DNA of 30,317 nucleotides. Origin: Fimbriimonadia bacterium. Its GTDB lineage: Bacteria; Armatimonadota; Fimbriimonadia; Fimbriimonadales; JABRVX01. The stretch covers positions 1 to 30,317 of the forward strand of contig JBGPGO010000028.1 of the NCBI GenBank assembly GCA_041483895.1, read 5' to 3'. Positions within the stretch are counted from its first letter, which is position 1; every line of letters starts with the position of its first letter. Below the pieces are notes generated by a model. The model saw only the letters and a program-made list of their open reading frames with translations, did not search any database and was not told where the DNA came from. The position numbers and the translations under genes are program-made. This document shows positions 10,428 through 27,688 of this stretch, piece after piece.

Positions 10428-11768
10428 CTATCTGCTCGGCCCACTTGAAAAGAACCCAATGAACATGGCGTTCAAATCATAAATACCGATGTTTCCGTCC
10501 GCATCCGCGTCATAGCTTACGACGTAGTCTGCCCAATTCGGCGGACAGGCGCCGAAAATTGTCGAAGTATAGGACAAGAAAATCCGGTTTATGTCTCCAA
10601 CATCGATCTGAGAATTTAGATTCGCGTCCCCGCCGATCAGTGTGAGCGTCCCGATATCGGTGGTGCCGCCGGAAAGCGTTACACCGTTCTTTTGGACCGG
10701 TATGAAGCCGTGCCCCATCGCAGTATACACGGGCTGGGTGTAGGTTGTCGTACCGTCGGTGCAATCGAATCGGCCGATATACCAATGGCGCGGGTATACG
10801 ATGACGTTGTATGTGCCGTTCTCCAGCGACCGCGTCGTAAACCGGCCGGCGCTATCCACGTTGACTGTTTCAATCATCACCGGAGTGCCATTTGCCGGAT
10901 CGACGAAGTATATGTCGAAGGCCTGCAATCGGGTCTGGTCATCCTGAAAGTAGAACTGCGGAACATCTCCTTGCCAGCCCTGCACATTGATAGTCCCCTT
11001 GACGACGGTGGCATTGTCGCCGGAACGGTCGACAATGCAGTAGGCGATGTGGTACAGGTCCCTGCCCTGCTGCTCATTCTCAGTCCAACCGCTGTAGTTG
11101 TATGGCGCCGAAGAGCCCATTGCGTCATATCCTGCGCGGAGGTCAGCTTCCCAGCCCGGCAACACAAAAGACTTGGTCTCGAATGACGTGTACGCCGACC
11201 CGATGCCGGTCTTGCGCCAAGCGTTGTTTCCGCTGCTGCCCCCCGGCGCCCCCACAAACTGCGAAATGTTGCCGTCCACACCATACACCGCGGCCCAATA
11301 GTTCCCCGGAGCTAGGTCCAGGGGCGGAAGGACCGGAACGGTAGCCACCTTGTCCACGATAAAGGTGTTCGCGCATGTTTTGCTGGAGGAACTCGCGACG
11401 AGCAGCGCATATACGCCGACACCCGTCGTCAACACCGAGCCTGGCTTGTTGCCATTGTCCGAATAGATGATGTAGCCGTAGGTCGTCGGGATCGAACCGG
11501 CTTTCTCGAGGAAATTGATCTCGATACCATCCATCGATATCGCTTGGGAGATATGAAATCGAAACGCCGACCAACGCTCCTCCTTCCCTAGCCCCAGATT
11601 GCCCGAATCCATGGTTACGCGCAAAAGGCTTGGGTTTTTCGGGTCTGGAGGACCCGAGCGCGCGTCCAGCGCCCAGGTTGGCGCGCCGGAACTCGCGATG
11701 ATCGTGGCAACCTGGGCACAAATCACCACCGGCAACAATAACAGGCAGATTGAAATAACTCGGAGCAT
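10428..11768 (-). CDS. Secreted hypothetical protein with C-terminal Ig-like plus dockerin/EF-hand-like module
   Basis: Signal peptide; GGDANLNSQIDVGDI and DADADGNIGIYDL Ca-binding-like repeats. Confidence 0.75.
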   Translation of the reverse strand: MLRVISICLLLLPVVICAQVATIIASSGAPTWALDARSGPPDPKNPSLLRVTMDSGNLGLGKEERWSAFRFHISQAISMDGIEINFLEKAGSIPTTYGYIIYSDNGNKPGSVLTTGVGVYALLVASSSSKTCANTFIVDKVATVPVLPPLDLAPGNYWAAVYGVDGNISQFVGAPGGSSGNNAWRKTGIGSAYTSFETKSFVLPGWEADLRAGYDAMGSSAPYNYSGWTENEQQGRDLYHIAYCIVDRSGDNATVVKGTINVQGWQGDVPQFYFQDDQTRLQAFDIYFVDPANGTPVMIETVNVDSAGRFTTRSLENGTYNVIVYPRHWYIGRFDCTDGTTTYTQPVYTAMGHGFIPVQKNGVTLSGGTTDIGTLTLIGGDANLNSQIDVGDINRIFLSYTSTIFGACPPNWADYVVSYDADADGNIGIYDLNAMFIGFFSSGPSR

Positions 11769-15873: not shown

Positions 15874-18800
15874 TTAGGGCGGTCCGTCCAGACCGAAGTG
15901 GATGAACACGATGTTCATATCCGGCAAACCGACAGATCCGGAGCCGTCGAGATCCACCGTGCCCGCATCGGTTTCGCCGAACTGAACGAAGATCAGGTTG
16001 AGGTCCTCGAGGTTTATGTGATTGTTGCTGTCCGCGTCTCCGCAGTCTGGCAGATCGATGTCCGTGACGCCGGTTCCGTCCACCGTCACGGACGGGACAA
16101 TCACTCGCAGCCAACGATCCGCCTTGACAGCCACCGTGTATGTGCCGGGCGCAACGCTGACGACGATGTTGCTCTGAGCATCCGGATGGACGGTACTGGA
16201 AGCGATCACCGATCCTGAAACCGGATCCCGAAACTCGACATCCACCGACACGAGGGTGGGATCGCCGACATACGTTTCCAAATCCAAGCGCCCGGAGAAA
16301 AGCACATTCGTCCCGGAGTTACACATGAATCGCGTTATCTGAATCTGGTCGACGCCCGCGATCGTGACCGAATTGTTCGGATTGTCCGAAATCGTGAACC
16401 TAAGCTTCATGTTTGCCGTCGGCTGCACAATGTCGCTGACGATGAAATCGTACGAAATCCACACCCGGCCGACGATTGGCCCTTGCGGAAGGTAATCGCC
16501 CGGTACGAATGTGTGAACAGGTACCCACGTCTGCCCGCCGTCATTGGAAATATCCAAGAACAGATGGTCGTCATCGCCATTATTGTACAGCCAGGATTCG
16601 AAGCTGACTTGGCCGTTGTAGCCGTTGAGATCGAATGTGGGAGAAGTCAATATCGTCGGACCGCCATCCAGGTCACCGTATCTAGCACCGCCGCCGGAAA
16701 CGCCAAGACCGGTCATCCAGCATTTATTTCCGCTATCGTAAGGGCTGTCTGAGAATGGCCGGGCCAAATCCCCCGGACCGAAGTACGAGTAGTTGGGGAT
16801 TCCACGGATCCAACCGCCTGTAGAGACTGAAATGTTCTGTACCTGCCAGCCCTTGTCGGTCTCGCAATCGTCGTAGAAGATCACCCGCGTATCGACCGAG
16901 TAGATCACCACTTCTGGGCTGAAACGCCCGTCGGCGGGATAATAGGCCATTACGCCTTCCAAGGTGTCTACCGACAGATACCATCGGACAATCGTTCCGC
17001 ATGGCTGGGCCGGGAAGGTGGCGAGGACCGGATTGATAGAACCCAGCGGAATGTCGGAATACGGCCCGCCGTTAACGGAAAGGTGCAGCATCACGGTATC
17101 CATGTCCGGATGGTTGATGCCGGGCGAAATCAGCGCGGTGGCAGTATGGATCGTGTTCGGTGTGGTGAATCCGGCCGGGATATTTACTTCGAACCGCACC
17201 AGCGGCAGATTTGGGGCTCTGAGATTGTGCTGCCCGAATCCGGCCTTGATCTCATTCCAATGCGGCGTCCCGTTGGAGAGATCGCCATCATCATCATCCA
17301 AAGTGAGGACGTCGATCGTCATCATGGGCGAAATCTGATACGGGCGGACAAGCAGCGCCCCCAAATAGAGTCTCCTGACGACATCGAGCGCAGCGGTATC
17401 CCCAATCGTAGCGGCCAACTGATCCTTCGTGTGCCAAAACGCGCCGGCAATCACCTGTCCCGCGGTATGCGACTCCGTCGCTTCCCCCGAGGGATATTGC
17501 TCGGTAGTCGTTTCCAGATTGCGGAGCGGCAGTGAGCCGGGGCCGTTGGCCTCGCGGAATATCTCCGGATCGTTTGCAAAGAGCGCGGACAAGAGATCCG
17601 CGAACCCCTCGTGAAATGAGTTCAACAGGATCGGAAAATTAGGCTGAGCTCTTGAAACAATGTAATGCCCGTATTCGTGATAGATCACGGAGGAATAGGC
17701 TCCGTTTACCCACCCTTGAATGAAATCTGCCGGCGCGAAATTCAACTCGATGAAATCGAAGTCGCCGAGCTGCGAGGAGTATGGGTTGTTCACTTTCGCC
17801 ACAATCGGATAATCGATGCCTGGGAAGTTCGGCTCGATCGATTTCACAAAATCGTGTACTTTGGTTACGTGAATCATCGCGTTGACTTGGGCCGTCTGGG
17901 CGGCTTTCTTGCCCGGGTTCAGGGTGAAGTCCGCCGGACCGGGAGGCGTGACCGTCACCGTCCGGCTTTCGTCAATATTGTCCGTGTTGTCGACAGATAC
18001 CCATAAGCCCTGGTCAACGGTCGCGGTCACATCCGCCTCAACAGTGCCCAGATGCGGAAGCACGAATGTACCGTCGGGATTCGTGAAGGTGTAGTTGCCG
18101 TCGTAATCGAACACTCTCGCGCCCGGAACCGGTTGCAGCGTAGGCGCGTTGCCCAAAATGTCCGGCCGCATTCCCGGCGTAGCATTCCCCATTACTGTGC
18201 CGCCGATATCTGCCTGAAGAATAAGGTTCACGTCGTCAAGCTTATCGCCGGTTGTGGCGTCTATGAATAGCAGATGGTGATATCGCAGCCTTGGATTTCG
18301 GCTAACGACACGAACCTGGTAGGCCATTCTCGGCGTCTCCCCACGGGTAAACAAGATGGGCTCGACCGATTCGATGCTCACATCCTTTCGCACCACCCGA
18401 GCGGCAGCGTTTGCCGCCCCGTTACCGGAAAGCACGAAACCACCAGGAAGTCCCGACGGGTCCGTCCCGGACATGGCGCCGACAACCAAAACCATTTGGT
18501 TATCGATGTCGTTCTTGATGAGGCACGCGAGGTATCCGTTCAGGACGGGGACGGTATCGACATATTGACGGAAATAGACTACCGTGAACTTTCCGTTCAT
18601 CACGTCCTGCTGCCCATCGAAATGGACGTCCGCCACATTGATGGAGAACAACGGGCCCGCGTATTGGTTCACGAATGCCTGGGCAGTTTGCTTGGGAGAG
18701 GATCCGCCGCCGAACGATCGGCCCCAAATGCGCCAATCTGTCGGGCTGGCTTCGGAATAGGCAAGGCCCGGATAGGCGGACAACAACTGACTCAGGCCTG

Positions 18801-18912
18801 ATGCATTGGGCGTAGCCAGGGAACGGGATCCGCCGATAGCCAGCAGCGCGGCGATCCCAAGCATGCGCACCGTCCGTGCGCCAGCTCCTTTTCGCAATTC
18901 AGATCTATTCAT
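15874..18912 (-). CDS. Large secreted zinc metallopeptidase (M4/M36-like, FTP/PepSY-like propeptide) with C-terminal Ig plus dockerin-like module
   Basis: Signal peptide; propeptide VYFRQYVDTVPV...FIDATTG; VIYHEYGH (HEXXH) and SFHEGFAD; C-terminal GDADSNNHINLEDL / DLDGSGSVGLPDM. Confidence 0.85.
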   Translation of the reverse strand: MNRSELRKGAGARTVRMLGIAALLAIGGSRSLATPNASGLSQLLSAYPGLAYSEASPTDWRIWGRSFGGGSSPKQTAQAFVNQYAGPLFSINVADVHFDGQQDVMNGKFTVVYFRQYVDTVPVLNGYLACLIKNDIDNQMVLVVGAMSGTDPSGLPGGFVLSGNGAANAAARVVRKDVSIESVEPILFTRGETPRMAYQVRVVSRNPRLRYHHLLFIDATTGDKLDDVNLILQADIGGTVMGNATPGMRPDILGNAPTLQPVPGARVFDYDGNYTFTNPDGTFVLPHLGTVEADVTATVDQGLWVSVDNTDNIDESRTVTVTPPGPADFTLNPGKKAAQTAQVNAMIHVTKVHDFVKSIEPNFPGIDYPIVAKVNNPYSSQLGDFDFIELNFAPADFIQGWVNGAYSSVIYHEYGHYIVSRAQPNFPILLNSFHEGFADLLSALFANDPEIFREANGPGSLPLRNLETTTEQYPSGEATESHTAGQVIAGAFWHTKDQLAATIGDTAALDVVRRLYLGALLVRPYQISPMMTIDVLTLDDDDGDLSNGTPHWNEIKAGFGQHNLRAPNLPLVRFEVNIPAGFTTPNTIHTATALISPGINHPDMDTVMLHLSVNGGPYSDIPLGSINPVLATFPAQPCGTIVRWYLSVDTLEGVMAYYPADGRFSPEVVIYSVDTRVIFYDDCETDKGWQVQNISVSTGGWIRGIPNYSYFGPGDLARPFSDSPYDSGNKCWMTGLGVSGGGARYGDLDGGPTILTSPTFDLNGYNGQVSFESWLYNNGDDDHLFLDISNDGGQTWVPVHTFVPGDYLPQGPIVGRVWISYDFIVSDIVQPTANMKLRFTISDNPNNSVTIAGVDQIQITRFMCNSGTNVLFSGRLDLETYVGDPTLVSVDVEFRDPVSGSVIASSTVHPDAQSNIVVSVAPGTYTVAVKADRWLRVIVPSVTVDGTGVTDIDLPDCGDADSNNHINLEDLNLIFVQFGETDAGTVDLDGSGSVGLPDMNIVFIHFGLDGPP

Positions 18913-23735: not shown

Positions 23736-25528
23736 CGGCCCGGCGGGTAGATGGTAAGCGTCCAGTCGCCGATGAGGCTCCAGAAGTAGGCCTTCTTGCG
23801 TCGGATCCCAATGCCGTTGTCTTTGTTCTCCCGCGCGTCGTTGCCATCGGCGTCAAAATAGCGCTGCCACACCTCACCCCAGGTCTTCCCTTCCGCGAGC
23901 AGCTTTTCCCAATTGGCGGGCTCGTCGTTGAACACTTTTCCACGGCCGAGCAGCACCAGGCCGTTGCAGAACATAAGCAACGCCTCCGCCCCTTGGTAGC
24001 GCCCATATCGATCATCCCCGAACGGATAGCGATCGAAATACGGCGGGGTGATGCTGTCGCAGCCGGTGTGCATGAACAGGTTCGGGGTGGGTGGCAAAAC
24101 TTTGTTTTCGTACAGGGTGCGATAGAGCTGGTACTCGCCGAATCCGGCTTCGAAGTCGGCCAGTTCCAACGTGTCGCCCTTGACCTGCCATCCCCACGCC
24201 GGGCCGGTTAAATCCAGGAGCGCTTTGTCATCCTTCGGCCGTCCATATTCGCTGCCCCAAGGTGACGTGTGCGCCTTTATCGCGCGAAGGAACGCCGGCC
24301 GCTTCATCCACGCGACCCAATCGTTCAGGTTGGCATGGGAGCCGACGACATCCAAACCTTTCGTGTCGAGATCGTTCCAAGGTTTGACCGATTGCTTGAG
24401 CGCGGGCACGGACGAATCCCACTCCGTAGAATAGTTGGCAGGCGCCCATCCGTCCGGAACGCCTTTGTTGCGATACGCGTGATCGCGGGTGAAGAATTCG
24501 TAGAGCAACTCGCGCTCCAAGGACGGATCGGACGTCCAGCGCTTATTGGCGTTTGGTACTTTTCCCGAAGCGAAATTGACGGCTTTAGGTCGTCCCTTCC
24601 CGTCTACGAGGGACGGATCCGGGCGGAAGGCAACCAGGGAGGCGTCGATCCGGGAAACGGCGATCTCGGCGCGGCACATGGGATTCGGAAGCTTCTTATC
24701 CTCGTTCGAGCACTCCGAATCGAGCGGCCCGGTTCGAATAAAGCGCATCCCGTCATCGGCAGTTTCGGCCCGGAAGCCTCCATCTTGGACGAAAAAGAAA
24801 TCGGAATAGGCTTTCGTGCCGGTCTCATAATCCTTGGTCGCCACCGCCGTATCGAATGCGGGGAAGGCGGCGCGAAAATAGGGGAGCGGCTTCGACTCCT
24901 CTTGGTACACGGAGTCCCACTTCCCGTCCATGTCGGCGAGGACGATGTCGGCGCTGGTCGCGACCGGTTCGGGATAGCTGACCACCCAATGCCTGCCGGA
25001 TATTTTCTTGCCGGCGATTTCCGTATCGTCATCCCGCTCCCAAAAGTGCTGGCGAACAATGAAGGCATTGGGGAAGCGGCCGATGAGGATCGCGCCCTTC
25101 AGGTCCGGCACGCGGTTAAATACGGATTGAAGAAAATGCCGGACCGCCAGAAGGGTCCGGCCGCCCTGCCTTCGTCTGGTTCCCTCTTCCAGTTGGATGG
25201 AAAGGGCCATCGCATTGTATCCGTCGCCGCTTAGGTCCCGCACGAAACCCTGGATTGACCGCTCCAGCGAACGAGCCCCGCGCAATGGAGTGAGGAGGCG
25301 GCTTTCGACAAGCACCAGAATCGTACCCTTTGGTCCGTTGGCGGGAGATTCATAGGGATATTTCCCCTTTTCCTCGATCCGTTGCAGGGAGCGAATCTCC
25401 GGATATCCATCCTTGTTGATGTCGATCGCGTGCAGGCCGGCTGCCTCCACGGCGGCTCTGGCATCGGCCAGGGTCCCGGCAAAGGAAGGCACGAAAAGCG
25501 CTAGGAGACAAAGGGAAAAGGTCCTCAT
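23732..25528 (-). CDS. Secreted hypothetical protein, possible divergent peptidase C25 (gingipain-like)
   Basis: Signal peptide from ATG 25528; GAILIGRFP, EIAVSRID, IKAHTS and FMHTGC, terminal LIGDWTL. Confidence 0.6.
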   Translation of the reverse strand: MRTFSLCLLALFVPSFAGTLADARAAVEAAGLHAIDINKDGYPEIRSLQRIEEKGKYPYESPANGPKGTILVLVESRLLTPLRGARSLERSIQGFVRDLSGDGYNAMALSIQLEEGTRRRQGGRTLLAVRHFLQSVFNRVPDLKGAILIGRFPNAFIVRQHFWERDDDTEIAGKKISGRHWVVSYPEPVATSADIVLADMDGKWDSVYQEESKPLPYFRAAFPAFDTAVATKDYETGTKAYSDFFFVQDGGFRAETADDGMRFIRTGPLDSECSNEDKKLPNPMCRAEIAVSRIDASLVAFRPDPSLVDGKGRPKAVNFASGKVPNANKRWTSDPSLERELLYEFFTRDHAYRNKGVPDGWAPANYSTEWDSSVPALKQSVKPWNDLDTKGLDVVGSHANLNDWVAWMKRPAFLRAIKAHTSPWGSEYGRPKDDKALLDLTGPAWGWQVKGDTLELADFEAGFGEYQLYRTLYENKVLPPTPNLFMHTGCDSITPPYFDRYPFGDDRYGRYQGAEALLMFCNGLVLLGRGKVFNDEPANWEKLLAEGKTWGEVWQRYFDADGNDARENKDNGIGIRRKKAYFWSLIGDWTLTIYPPGR

Positions 25529-25586: not shown

Positions 25587-25615
25587 ATCGGGCGGATCCG
25601 GAGGACCCGCCCGAT
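25587..25615 (-). terminator. Intrinsic terminator-like hairpin after the PEP-CTERM gene
   Basis: ATCGGGCGG...CCGCCCGAT stem followed on the minus strand by TTCACTTT. Confidence 0.6.
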
Positions 25616-25625
25616 AGACTGTTCG

Positions 25626-26165
25626 CTAAGCGCGCCGGCGAAATGCGGCGATCGACATGAGCGCTGCGACGGCAATGCCGGCAATCCCTTTCGGCTCGGG
25701 TACCACATTTGTGATATGCATAGTATCCGTGCCGTCCGGGAATGAGCCATGGACACGGATATGGAAGCCGAACGCATCAACGGCGGCGACGTTCAGATCC
25801 GAATAGCCAAAGTTCAGCGAATCGTTCGGATGAATCGCAAAGCTCTTGTTCGGGTTCTTCCAGCCGGCGATATCGGTGCTGTTCTCGTGATATCCCCAAC
25901 CGTTCTGATTAGGGCCGTCGGCCAGAAGGTTCAGGCTGTTAGCGAGTGACCAGAAACCGAACAGATCCATTACGCTATAGAGGTCCCCGAGGTAGACAAA
26001 GGTGGGATTTGGACCCATCGAGACCGTGAAGGTCTTTCCGGATTCCGCGGACGTAACGAAAATGTCGCTCAGGCTGGTAACTGGTTGAAATGAATTTCTG
26101 CTCTGGGCCATCCCCAGGGACGCGGCACAAAGCAAAAAGGCAATAACAAAAGTGCGTAAACTCAC
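25626..26165 (-). CDS. PEP-CTERM sorting-domain protein (paralog B)
   Basis: Signal peptide; C-terminal VPEP-TM-RRRA; GTG 26165 follows GAGAGGATAGGAAAA, same spacing as paralog A. Confidence 0.88.
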   Translation of the reverse strand: MSLRTFVIAFLLCAASLGMAQSRNSFQPVTSLSDIFVTSAESGKTFTVSMGPNPTFVYLGDLYSVMDLFGFWSLANSLNLLADGPNQNGWGYHENSTDIAGWKNPNKSFAIHPNDSLNFGYSDLNVAAVDAFGFHIRVHGSFPDGTDTMHITNVVPEPKGIAGIAVAALMSIAAFRRRA

Positions 26166-26396
26166 TTTTCCTATCCTCTCTTGAGAAAGACAAGGGGATC
26201 GATCATGTGTGAATCGACACAGCAGACCATCCCGGTACCAGGGCAATGAGAGGAGGCTGCAAGTCCGCCTACGAAGGGTGACTGACTTGGCCTACCCCAA
26301 TCCGACAACTAAGACAATCGGAACGCACTGAATGCGTTTCCGAACCTACCGGTGGGGCATGCAAAATCAATCCAAAACATACCGGCTCGTCTAATT
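26166..26396 (-). ncRNA. Candidate structured 5' leader RNA, copy B
   Basis: Collinear conserved non-coding blocks shared with 27060-27295, with compensatory changes in stems. Confidence 0.6.
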
Positions 26397-26468
26397 GCGA
26401 GCTTGGCTGCATTATACGACGCGATCGGCGATCCTGCCAGGGGCGTGTGAGAAAACCCAGTAATTTCT

Positions 26469-26514
26469 ATAGGACGCATCGGACCGATCGATCTGATCCG
26501 TCCGATCGGTCCGA
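26469..26514. repeat. 9-nt periodic palindrome / terminator-like hairpin
   Basis: ATAGGACGC ATCGGACCG ATCGATCTG ATCCGTCCG ATCGGTCCG; 12-bp perfect stem 26479-26490/26503-26514 just after the paralog A stop. Confidence 0.7.
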
Positions 26515-26522
26515 ATGAAACA

Positions 26523-27059
26523 CTAGACTCTGCGTCGGAAGCCGGCAATAGTGGCGAGGGAGGCAATCGCAATTCCGGCAATCGCGCTGGGTTCCGGTAC
26601 GGCGGTGATGTGCATGGTGTTCGAGCCATCCGGGAATTGCCCAGAAACGCGAATGTGGAAGCCATATCCATCGACGGCCGCGACGTTCAGGGCCGAGTAA
26701 GTGAAGGTCAACGACTCGTTTGGATGGATGGCGTTGCTCTTACTGGGATTCTTCCAGCCGGCGATGTCAGTGCTGTTCTCGTGGTAGCCCCAGCCGTTCT
26801 GATCCGGGCCATTAGCGGCGAGATCCAGGCCGTCGGCAAGCGACCAGAAACCGAACAGGTCGGTCACGGTATACGTAGTGCTGAGATAGTCAAAGGTGGG
26901 GTTTGGGCCCATCGAAACGGTATCTGTCATTCCGGCATTCGAAGACTGCACGAAAATATCATTCAGGCTGGTCACAACTTGAAATGAACTTCTGCTCTGA
27001 GCCATCGAAACGGTCGCGGCGCAAAGCGAAAGGGTTATTGCGATAGCGCGTGTGTTCAA
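26523..27059 (-). CDS. PEP-CTERM sorting-domain protein (paralog A)
   Basis: Signal peptide; VPEP-TM-RRRV; long identical stretches with paralog B (GPxQNGWGYHENSTDIAGWKNP); TTG start. Confidence 0.9.
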   Translation of the reverse strand: MNTRAIAITLSLCAATVSMAQSRSSFQVVTSLNDIFVQSSNAGMTDTVSMGPNPTFDYLSTTYTVTDLFGFWSLADGLDLAANGPDQNGWGYHENSTDIAGWKNPSKSNAIHPNESLTFTYSALNVAAVDGYGFHIRVSGQFPDGSNTMHITAVPEPSAIAGIAIASLATIAGFRRRV

Positions 27060-27295
27060 TGTTCCTATCCTCTCCGGTGATTTGCGTGGGGATCGAACGC
27101 GTGTGAGTGTTCACGGCAGACCATCCCAGTACCAGGGCGATGAGAGGCGGCCGCATGTCTCGTTCAAACTTGGCCAACCTCAAATCGACAACTCAGACAA
27201 TCCAGAACACCGCTTAAACCATTCCGAACCAACCGGTGGATGCGAGCTCGCCTTCATTTACGATGAGATCCGCGATGATACCGGTTCGTTCAATT
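27060..27295 (-). ncRNA. Candidate structured 5' leader RNA, copy A
   Basis: Homologous to 26166-26396. Confidence 0.6.
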
Positions 27296-27309: not shown

Positions 27310-27498
27310 CTAGAGGACCTTTCGCAAACGGATGTTGACAATCCCAACGGTCATAGCTAGCAGACCTGCCACGCTGCGGGTTTGAGCGGGTTTTTCGCCA
27401 CTCCTATTCTCGGCAGTCTGCGTAGATTGTCGGTTCATCGCGAGCGTCATACCGGCGATTCCAATTGTGAGTGCAATAACAATAATACGGAAATTCAT
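27310..27498 (-). CDS. Small protein with signal peptide and C-terminal TM/basic tail
   Basis: SD GAGGA; hydrophobic N-terminus; ends SVAGLLAMTVGIVNIRLRKVL; co-oriented with the PEP-CTERM genes. Confidence 0.55.
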   Translation of the reverse strand: MNFRIIVIALTIGIAGMTLAMNRQSTQTAENRSGEKPAQTRSVAGLLAMTVGIVNIRLRKVL

Positions 27499-27536: not shown

Positions 27537-27553
27537 TGGCACAGGGCGTGCCA
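27537..27553. promoter_or_regulatory. Palindrome TGGCAC-N5-GTGCCA; sigma54-like -24/-12 element or TF site
   Basis: Minus strand reads TGGCACGCCCTGTGC versus consensus TGGCACGNNNNTTGC; lies in a divergent intergenic region. Confidence 0.45.
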
Positions 27554-27582
27554 AATGAGGTGGTCGGGTGTCCCAGCCTCGA

Positions 27583-27644
27583 AAGAACCCCCACCCAACC
27601 CTCCCCCTTTCCCAGGCTGGCGCCTGAAAAAAGGGGAGGGCTTT
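27583..27644 (+). repeat. Dispersed 62-bp palindromic repeat, copy 2
   Basis: 60/62 identical to the reverse complement of 1424-1485. Confidence 0.9.
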
Positions 27645-27688
27645 TCGAATGAACCATTTCCCAATGCCATTGCGACTAAAGGATCACC

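Follow-up and report, generated by a model that had tools for sequence, protein, structure and literature searches.

A duplicated, structured 5' leader of PEP-CTERM genes in a Fimbriimonadia bacterium: a family-restricted cis-regulatory RNA and probable translation-initiation switch

Introduction

The SMK box (SAM-III, S-adenosylmethionine) riboswitch is a translational OFF/ON switch with an anti-Shine-Dalgarno (anti-SD) and an anti-anti-SD helix. In the leader of the maturation gene of phage MS2, a long-range helix that includes the Shine-Dalgarno (SD) sequence closes over several hairpins and gives a folding-delay window; it is not known to have an anti-anti-SD arm. Here we analyse a leader that occurs twice in a 30,317-nt stretch of DNA, called the window throughout (Fimbriimonadia bacterium, assembly GCA_041483895.1, contig JBGPGO010000028.1). 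It forms the 5' untranslated region (5' UTR) of two tandem genes, A and B, for small secreted PEP-CTERM proteins, and a first-pass annotation, made from the letters alone, had proposed it as a candidate riboswitch or other cis-regulatory RNA. The feature is a real cis-regulatory RNA, uncatalogued in Rfam and restricted to one bacterial family, and it is probably a translation-initiation switch. RNA-level control of translation initiation, all triggers taken together, is very probable.

As in the SMK box, an upstream arm and the SD sequence compete for one anti-SD, and in the closed state the SD helix shuts a junction; unlike the SMK box, the locus has no Rfam match, no SAM-related gene and no core conserved across genera. 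The MS2 maturation leader resembles it in the SD helix that closes over hairpins, although it is a phage RNA and serves as an analogy only. The working logic is that of known SD-sequestering switches, and the leader is a member of no family tested.

Translational class II T-boxes, as described in passages of PMC7778990, share with it the two-state sequestration of the ribosome binding site (RBS) and a UGGN sequence, but their antisequestrator bulge geometry is absent from copies A and B, and the gene is unrelated to amino acids. Leaders remodelled by CsrA/RsmA, as portrayed in parts of PMC4347634, resemble it in being GGA-rich; copies A and B match 10 of the 12 consensus positions and csrA is encoded in the genome, but the ACA is broken, the GGA lies in a predicted stem and the sister genus does not retain the site. 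The cis-element of proteobacterial PEP-CTERM genes set out in sections of PMC1569441 consists of a PrsR site and a sigma-54 promoter, acts as DNA, and has a mean distance of 71 nt between promoter and start codon. Both systems have a long non-coding region before single PEP-CTERM genes and -24/-12 sites; the present element, in contrast, spans about 190 nt, lies downstream of the candidate promoters and shows RNA covariation in the sister genus. The passages found in PMC1569441 make no mention of riboswitches.

No RNA-level control of PEP-CTERM genes was found in the literature searched, in which the 224-motif survey PMC5737381 was covered through Rfam only. Searches for PEP-CTERM together with riboswitch gave nothing on topic by title or abstract start, and nothing was found on RNA motifs or riboswitches in Armatimonadetes or on noncoding RNA in Fimbriimonas.

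The two leaders are conserved beyond neutral drift

Genes A and B are tandem paralogs on the minus strand, 894 nt apart, and their proteins are 70% identical. The shared blocks reported by the first-pass annotation were all found in both leaders, on the minus strand, in the order and at the positions it had given. Genes and leader parts are as follows:

26523..27059, minus strand: gene A, 178 amino acids (aa), TTG start at 27059; signal peptide, immunoglobulin/carbohydrate-binding-module (Ig/CBM)-like beta-sandwich, PEP-CTERM tail
25626..26165, minus strand: gene B, 179 aa, GTG start at 26165; paralog of A, VPEP tail by eye
27060..27257, minus strand: leader A, 5' UTR up to the TTG; start weakly predicted (sigma-54-type) and placed by alignment to B; conserved core 27239-27062
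26166..26413, minus strand: leader B, 5' UTR up to the GTG; predicted start; conserved core 26355-26168
27203..27239, minus strand: A, block 1 (27239-27222) and hairpin P2, arms conserved, interior diverged
26319..26355, minus strand: B, block 1 (26355-26338) and hairpin P2
27186..27202, minus strand: A, block 2, with an alternative 8-bp helix (4 G-U) to the P5 5' arm that excludes P5
26303..26319, minus strand: B, block 2, as in A
27144..27181, minus strand: A, P3/P4, the anti-anti-SD helix with a variable hairpin; P3 arms 27181-27173 (5') and 27151-27144 (3')
26250..26298, minus strand: B, P3/P4; P3 arms 26298-26290 (5') and 26257-26250 (3')
27142..27147, minus strand: A, anti-SD CCUCUC, overlapped by the P3 3' arm
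26248..26253, minus strand: B, anti-SD CCUCUC, overlapped by the P3 3' arm
27129..27134, minus strand: A, UGGUAC hexamer, also 3' of the anti-SD in the sister-genus leaders
26235..26240, minus strand: B, UGGUAC hexamer, also 3' of the anti-SD in the sister-genus leaders
27088..27127, minus strand: A, P5/P6 hairpin domain, whose 3' arm alternatively pairs with bases between SD and start codon
26194..26233, minus strand: B, P5/P6 hairpin domain, as in A
27062..27074, minus strand: A, SD GAGAGG (27074-27069) and invariant 3' extension
26168..26180, minus strand: B, SD GAGAGG (26180-26175) and invariant 3' extension

The annotation had allowed that the leaders might be no more alike than the neutral sites of the duplicate. 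They are more alike: from block 1 to the SD extension 131/176 columns are identical, against 31/66 fourfold-degenerate sites of the coding sequences (Fisher P=1e-4). Taken block by block, identity is 16/17, 16/17, 12/14, 38/43 (block 4), 8/9 and 13/13 (SD), and by eye it falls to about 4/14 inside hairpin P2 and about 4/13 in the last linker. This identity above neutral, alternating from block to block, argues for selection rather than for recent age or a conversion tract.

The main indel, 11 nt long, falls in a loop, as had been noted, namely that of P4. All 24 pairs of the P3 state hold in both copies: two have changed on both sides (U-G/A-U in P3 and C-G/U-A in P6) and two on one side. A third compensatory change lies in an alternative hairpin over blocks 4-5.

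A public contig covers positions 26158-27157 with no differences; the duplication is therefore unlikely to be an assembly artefact, although this contig possibly comes from the source sample. Contigs of 4 of 21 DNA sequencing runs contained pieces over the leaders that were identical to the window, with no new variants.

A covarying leader of the same plan in the sister genus

Besides the genome holding genes A and B (G000), the family includes two genomes of a sister genus (G225 and G226). Their homologous genes, and those on two metagenome contigs (L192 and L191) that were obtained by protein-guided scans, carry a conserved structured leader of their own; the same scans of viral contigs yielded no locus. 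The L191 leader is truncated and begins inside the hexamer, leaving five full leaders (A, B, G225, G226 and L192).

A covariance model built from three sister leaders found the fourth at E=3e-12. In the alignment of three sequences 90% of the cells are paired and five pairs have changed on both sides; the covariation score was reached by 0/500 shuffles and the number of pairs by 2/500, with a structure derived from the same sequences. The minimum free energies (MFE) of these leaders lie at z -2.4 to -3.9 relative to shuffles, and the fourfold sites of their genes are 36-58% identical.

The plan of the sister leaders parallels that of the window: a 5' arm, the anti-SD, UGGUAC, hairpins and the SD. 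A 9-bp pairing joins the 5' arm to the anti-SD region, and several hairpins lie within the loop that the SD helix closes. The anti-SD/SD pair reads CCCACC/GGUGGG versus CCUCUC/GAGAGG in the window, with three positions changed on both sides. SD-closed and SD-open ensembles differ by 1.9 (G225), 6.7 (G226) and 2.6 (L192) kcal/mol. The first-pass annotation had cautioned that its proposal came from two copies only; since a second genus shows a covarying leader with the same logic, the observation is now better supported than two copies allowed.

Fourfold sites between the two genera are 26-44% identical, i.e., saturated, so little neutral similarity is to be expected. Common descent of the two leader types is likely, and their convergence on an SD lock is a possible alternative.

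Predicted folding and competing helices

Four bases of the anti-SD also belong to the P3 3' arm and, as a result, P3 and the anti-SD:SD helix are mutually exclusive. The exclusivity proposed by the first-pass annotation, in which the anti-SD pairs either with the P3 arm or with the SD, holds; the full picture is more complex than these two helices, as further shared alternatives were found. The P5 5' arm has two exclusive partners, its own 3' arm or block 2, and both helices are compatible with both copies. In constrained folds the P5 3' arm, once released, takes the stretch from SD to start codon as its partner, and this may be why the bases of that stretch are invariant.

A fully open RBS is predicted to require both P3 and P5. 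Forming both costs 3.5 kcal/mol in A and 5.6 kcal/mol in B relative to the free ensemble, so that each copy is predicted to be partly or fully closed at rest. Even with both helices formed, the SD of copy B remains covered by a local hairpin.

Copy B favours the anti-SD:SD helix (P=0.98) and is more stable than its shuffles (MFE z=-2.3). In folds of co-transcriptional prefixes P3 forms first: in copy B its probability is 0.44-0.87 before the SD is transcribed, and the anti-SD:SD helix reaches 0.96-1.00 once the SD is complete, whereas in copy A P3 stays at 0.93 throughout. The SD helix of copy B is not predicted to melt between 25 and 55 C (0.93, 0.98 and 0.92).

Distribution of the leader

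The first-pass annotation recognised no known riboswitch consensus, and the Rfam 15 covariance models, which it had suggested as a check, gave nothing over the leaders. Between positions 24500 and 29000 of the window, the two matches at E<=5 both fell at 27581-27656; they do not touch the leaders and score below the gathering threshold. No match was found at E<=10 over leader B, or at E<=5 over the four sister-genus loci.

BLAST and nhmmer returned only two copies in the genome, the number originally reported (next best nhmmer match E=1.6). PEP-CTERM-like tails end 66 open reading frames (ORFs) of at least 150 codons in G000, several of them in tandem arrays; only the pair A/B carries the leader. 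A BLAST search of 228 genomes of the class gave matches at E<=0.5 in 70 (a tally that includes G011), and outside G000 these are just short pieces (<=39 nt, best E=0.013). The core pattern, with 3 mismatches allowed, was found in 1 of 401 genomes of the phylum, namely G000.

A corrected covariance model (R3; in model R1 the long-range helix is shifted by one column) gave no credible match among 150 relatives and 150 genomes of the phylum, the one other match lying inside an ORF. Exact 17-mer scans gave 3 viral and at least 120 genome-contig stretches, and none among the matches listed extends beyond the seed. The sister-genus pattern matched 8 times in the 228 class genomes (two of these being G225 and G226), versus 14 times for the reversed control; of its 9 viral matches none was supported by the R1 model. 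Five marginal covariance-model candidates were rejected: those in G017 and G300 lie inside long ORFs, that in G203 runs antisense over a gene end, and those in G110 and G200 are partial. The range comprises six copies in one family; in the genomes searched, all of them precede members of this gene family.

A translation switch and its likely trigger

The results describe a structured 5' UTR that would hide or free the SD region of a small secreted, PEP-CTERM-anchored surface protein. Of the translational switch first proposed, a selected, structured cis-regulatory leader with exclusive helices stands and has gained support from the sister genus; a metabolite aptamer found no support. We tentatively prefer an SD-masking 5' UTR that is flipped by a trans-acting protein or small RNA (sRNA) at the UGGUAC stretch, a reading to which we give somewhat less than an even chance and which is nevertheless the leading candidate. 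An RNA-binding protein or sRNA would engage the short conserved stretch around UGGUAC and hold the P3+P5 fold against the two closing helices, so that ribosomes could load; this would add a translational check under sigma-54-type transcription.

Three features make a protein or sRNA the most likely trigger: a short motif kept across genera, blocks that do double duty and a range of one gene family. The blocks may be nearly invariant because most of their bases would serve two helices. Only the hexamer survives between the genera while fourfold sites are saturated, a pattern that would suit an aptamer less well than a short recognition site. All of the full leaders (5/5) fit the descriptor "distal 6-bp anti-SD, then UGGUAC", as do 0/64 of the remaining PEP-CTERM upstream regions in G000 (the anti-SD alone is present in 10) and 0/32 regions upstream of homologs in other families (the anti-SD alone is present in one). 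The chance of the hexamer at that place is about 0.0008, before correction for its post-hoc choice.

Several observations weigh against this interpretation. The descriptor was made post hoc from the five sequences that it fits, and these represent two lineages. In copy A the anti-SD:SD helix has P=0.00, P3 is kept and the SD is about half unpaired; this copy also folds no better than its shuffles (MFE z=+1.0). The UGGUAC hexamer is not predicted to be consistently unpaired, and an antisense scan for trigger candidates gave no candidate, just four two-mismatch matches besides the loci themselves. The pairing-preserving substitutions of the first-pass annotation, which held pair by pair, do not amount to significant covariation between the two copies, as 120/500 shuffles scored equally high. 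In the sister genus covariation is confined to two local hairpins, and the switch helices never vary or break once.

The link between the genera is subject to similar reservations. The sister covariance model, whose long-range helix is one column off, gave no match at E<=10 over the window leaders; R3 gave only partial matches over the sister leaders (E>=0.089), and nhmmer gave none between the two leader types. Pairwise scores between the genera were reached by 11 to 228 of 300 shuffles. In a quick tree of 52 proteins each genus formed a clade outside the main group of 39 rows, and the two were not recovered as sisters.

Alternative explanations

The other explanations are taken in falling order of probability. 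Control with no ligand is possible, if rather unlikely: either a kinetic lock, in which P3 forms first, the ribosome has a window and the SD helix then closes, or melting with temperature. The prefix folds of copy B, with P3 preceding the SD and the SD helix then rising to near certainty, follow the course that a lock would take, and the SD helix of the sister leaders closes a multi-hairpin loop. The L192 leader shifts between folds with temperature in the model, and dual pairing would account for the conservation of the blocks with no ligand involved. The persistence of P3 in copy A and the predicted stability of the SD helix in copy B up to 55 C speak against such control, and the hexamer kept across genera is left unexplained.

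A new metabolite or second-messenger riboswitch, with the junction closed by anti-SD:SD around UGGUAC as its aptamer, is unlikely; it is possible but less favoured than a protein or sRNA trigger or a ligand-free lock. The long near-invariant blocks (block 4 at 38/43) would suit it, as would a junction whose closing helix includes the SD, and two of the three sister leaders have near-isoenergetic states, within 2-3 kcal/mol (G225 and L192). The two genera, however, have no aptamer-sized core in common, just the hexamer and the pairing logic; the copies stand only before this gene family, with none before other genes or families in the genomes searched; and neither Rfam (no similarity at E<=5 or 10) nor the regulated protein gives a ligand clue. 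As a variant, the window leader may consist of two tandem units (block 1 to the P3 5' arm, and P3 to the SD), and both putative units are closed in the lowest-energy fold of copy B. In its boldest form the leader would be the first known member of an undescribed riboswitch or trans-activated RNA class of one family, with anti-SD and SD swapped by three compensatory changes around UGGUAC and with a unit doubled in tandem here, the two modules closing together on a signal such as a second messenger and thereby stopping translation of the surface protein; we regard this form, too, as unlikely.

Conservation at the DNA level (promoter, activator or operator) or patchy gene conversion, with RNA pairings that are incidental, is improbable. 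Blocks 1 and 4 come close to being palindromes and are similar to a TACYRG motif upstream of these genes, which has 28 and 19 matches per strand versus 11.5 expected, and copy A is not unusually stable. Against this reading stand the compensatory changes, the confinement of indels to loops, the significant covariation in the sister genus, an SD complement that tracks the SD in both genera, and the position of the best promoter matches upstream of block 1; the alternation of identity by block, down to the diverged loop and linker, is unlike a conversion tract. In a partial form, blocks 1-2 would be DNA sites and only the part from P3 to the SD would act as RNA.

Direct repression by CsrA, binding GGA in block 4 and at the SD and releasing the P5 3' arm so that it covers the RBS, is very improbable. 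The CsrA family PF02599 scores over its cut-off in 3/3 family genomes. In G000 csrA adjoins ORFs that, from their translations, we take to be flgL- and fliW-like. The match of copies A and B to the consensus obtained by systematic evolution of ligands by exponential enrichment (SELEX), given in part of PMC4347634, exceeds that of 64 controls, which reach at most 9/12. Its mismatch, however, falls in the ACA, 100% conserved according to that part of PMC4347634, and where the same source states that CsrA prefers GGA in loops, most predicted folds place the block-4 GGA in a stem. ANGGA occurs 0 times in A and B, and the sister leaders match only 8, 6, 5 and 7 of 12 positions, the GGA of the site being lost in L192.

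A leader peptide is highly improbable. It would be encoded by a near-leaderless upstream ORF (uORF) at the 5' end of the transcript, with the progress of the ribosome (e.g., over Pro-Pro) picking the helix. An ATG or GTG lies within 7 nt of the predicted start in 5/5 full leaders and opens 25-47 codons with a stop before the SD. The statement that no reading frame is conserved holds almost throughout, with an exception over block 1: the ATG at both predicted starts of A and B shares a frame over block 1 (PPVGSE), the sole block-1 change is synonymous and a 39-nt indel keeps the frame. Beyond block 1 the frames of A and B part, stops fall at different places, and the anti-SD is in a different frame in each of the three sister leaders; the starts themselves are predicted.

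A T-box-like pairing of UGGU with the NCCA end of an uncharged tRNA is hardly credible: although UGGU, which starts the T-box bulge in the passages of PMC7778990 consulted, is present in 5/5 full leaders, the two-helix geometry with a 7-nt bulge described there is absent from A and B and occurs in the three sister leaders no more often than expected by chance (shuffle rate 0.36-0.71), Rfam gives no T-box match and the gene has no amino-acid function.

In a little-studied lineage, an SD-masking leader of this kind would give a poorly understood surface-protein system a further, translational level of control and, if a small molecule were the trigger, would be a new riboswitch class. The narrow range of six copies in one family limits its general weight. 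The system provides three experimental handles, namely two paralogs predicted to be differently tuned, the exchanged SD pair of a second genus and a single conserved hexamer.

Genes A and B and their products

The non-ATG starts noted earlier, TTG and GTG, yield a 20-residue signal peptide that matches those of the homologs. The regulated gene shows the hallmarks of PEP-CTERM proteins: a signal peptide and, at the C-terminus, PEP, a transmembrane helix and a basic tail. Gene A scores 17.1 bits against the PEP-CTERM model TIGR02595, above the cut-off of 16. The tail of gene B is below the thresholds of the hidden Markov models (HMMs) and is the same tail by alignment to A. The sister-genus homolog P0003 scores over the cut-off of PF07589, and homologs of the protein occur in 61 of the 228 class genomes.

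The product of gene A was modelled confidently as a beta-sandwich (predicted local distance difference test, pLDDT, 97.5). Foldseek returned no structural neighbour at E<=0.001; the best VIA Z was 7.4 (no clear match) and the best ESM Atlas value 0.82. Since the neighbours are generic Ig/CBM-like folds, the regulated gene offers no ligand clue.

Eight flagellin genes (L224-L231, in G000, G225 and G226) also appear to start with GTG or TTG and not ATG. Regulated genes in this bacterial family may commonly have non-ATG starts.

Promoters and transcript start

A transcript start downstream of the conserved blocks had been named as an observation that would count against the leader. The best candidate promoters are all located upstream of block 1, as far as prediction goes. 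rpoN is encoded in the genome. A sigma-54 position weight matrix (PWM) was derived from 32 loose -24/-12 seeds lying before related genes; random windows have a 90th percentile of 8.9 and a 99th of 12.6. Promoter features are as follows:

26423..26441, minus strand: candidate sigma-54-type promoter of B, GG-N10-GA; PWM 9.0, about the 90th percentile of random windows
27537..27555, minus strand: canonical sigma-54 promoter upstream of a 62-aa ORF and gene A; PWM 14.3, above the 99th percentile (12.6)
27310..27498, minus strand: putative 62-aa ORF between the canonical sigma-54 promoter and leader A, with hydrophobic stretches at both termini and a basic tail

A sigma-70-like match (26440-26411) overlaps the GG-N10-GA site of B. 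The site before leader A that aligns to the promoter of B is a GG-N10-GA as well; it is weak and outside the four best PWM matches. The GG-N10-GC sites of the sister genus score below the top four.

The 62-aa ORF has an SD of its own, resembles a PEP-CTERM protein with neither PEP nor body, stands directly behind the canonical sigma-54 promoter and matches no Pfam family at cut-off.

Sigma-54-type promoters with GA for GC at -12 recur before the gene family, and a TACYRG motif, a candidate lineage-specific activator site, sometimes lies 23-28 nt upstream of them (for example at L044, L047, L039 and L046; in the window at 26462-26457 and 27305-27300). At L034 and L035 a conserved inverted repeat (TTAGC-N3-GCTAA type) was found upstream of the sister promoter, beside a divergent nucleotidyltransferase-like ORF, and is a possible regulator site.

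Two terminator-like hairpins were seen on the minus strand, one of 13 bp after gene B (25587-25615) and a weak one in the 5' extension of B (26385-26402).

Other features of the window

A 37-nt palindrome resembling repetitive extragenic palindromes (REP) follows gene A at 26478-26514; on the strand scanned, G000 has seven copies with no more than 7 mismatches, and pieces of it also occur in other contigs of the sequencing runs. A second long inverted repeat, at 27581-27656, has high depth from many unrelated contigs and is probably a dispersed repeat.

Two ORFs on the minus strand, at 15874-18912 and 10428-11768, code for large secreted-looking proteins with C-terminal repeats that we take to be dockerin-like; one of the two has an HEYGH protease-like motif.

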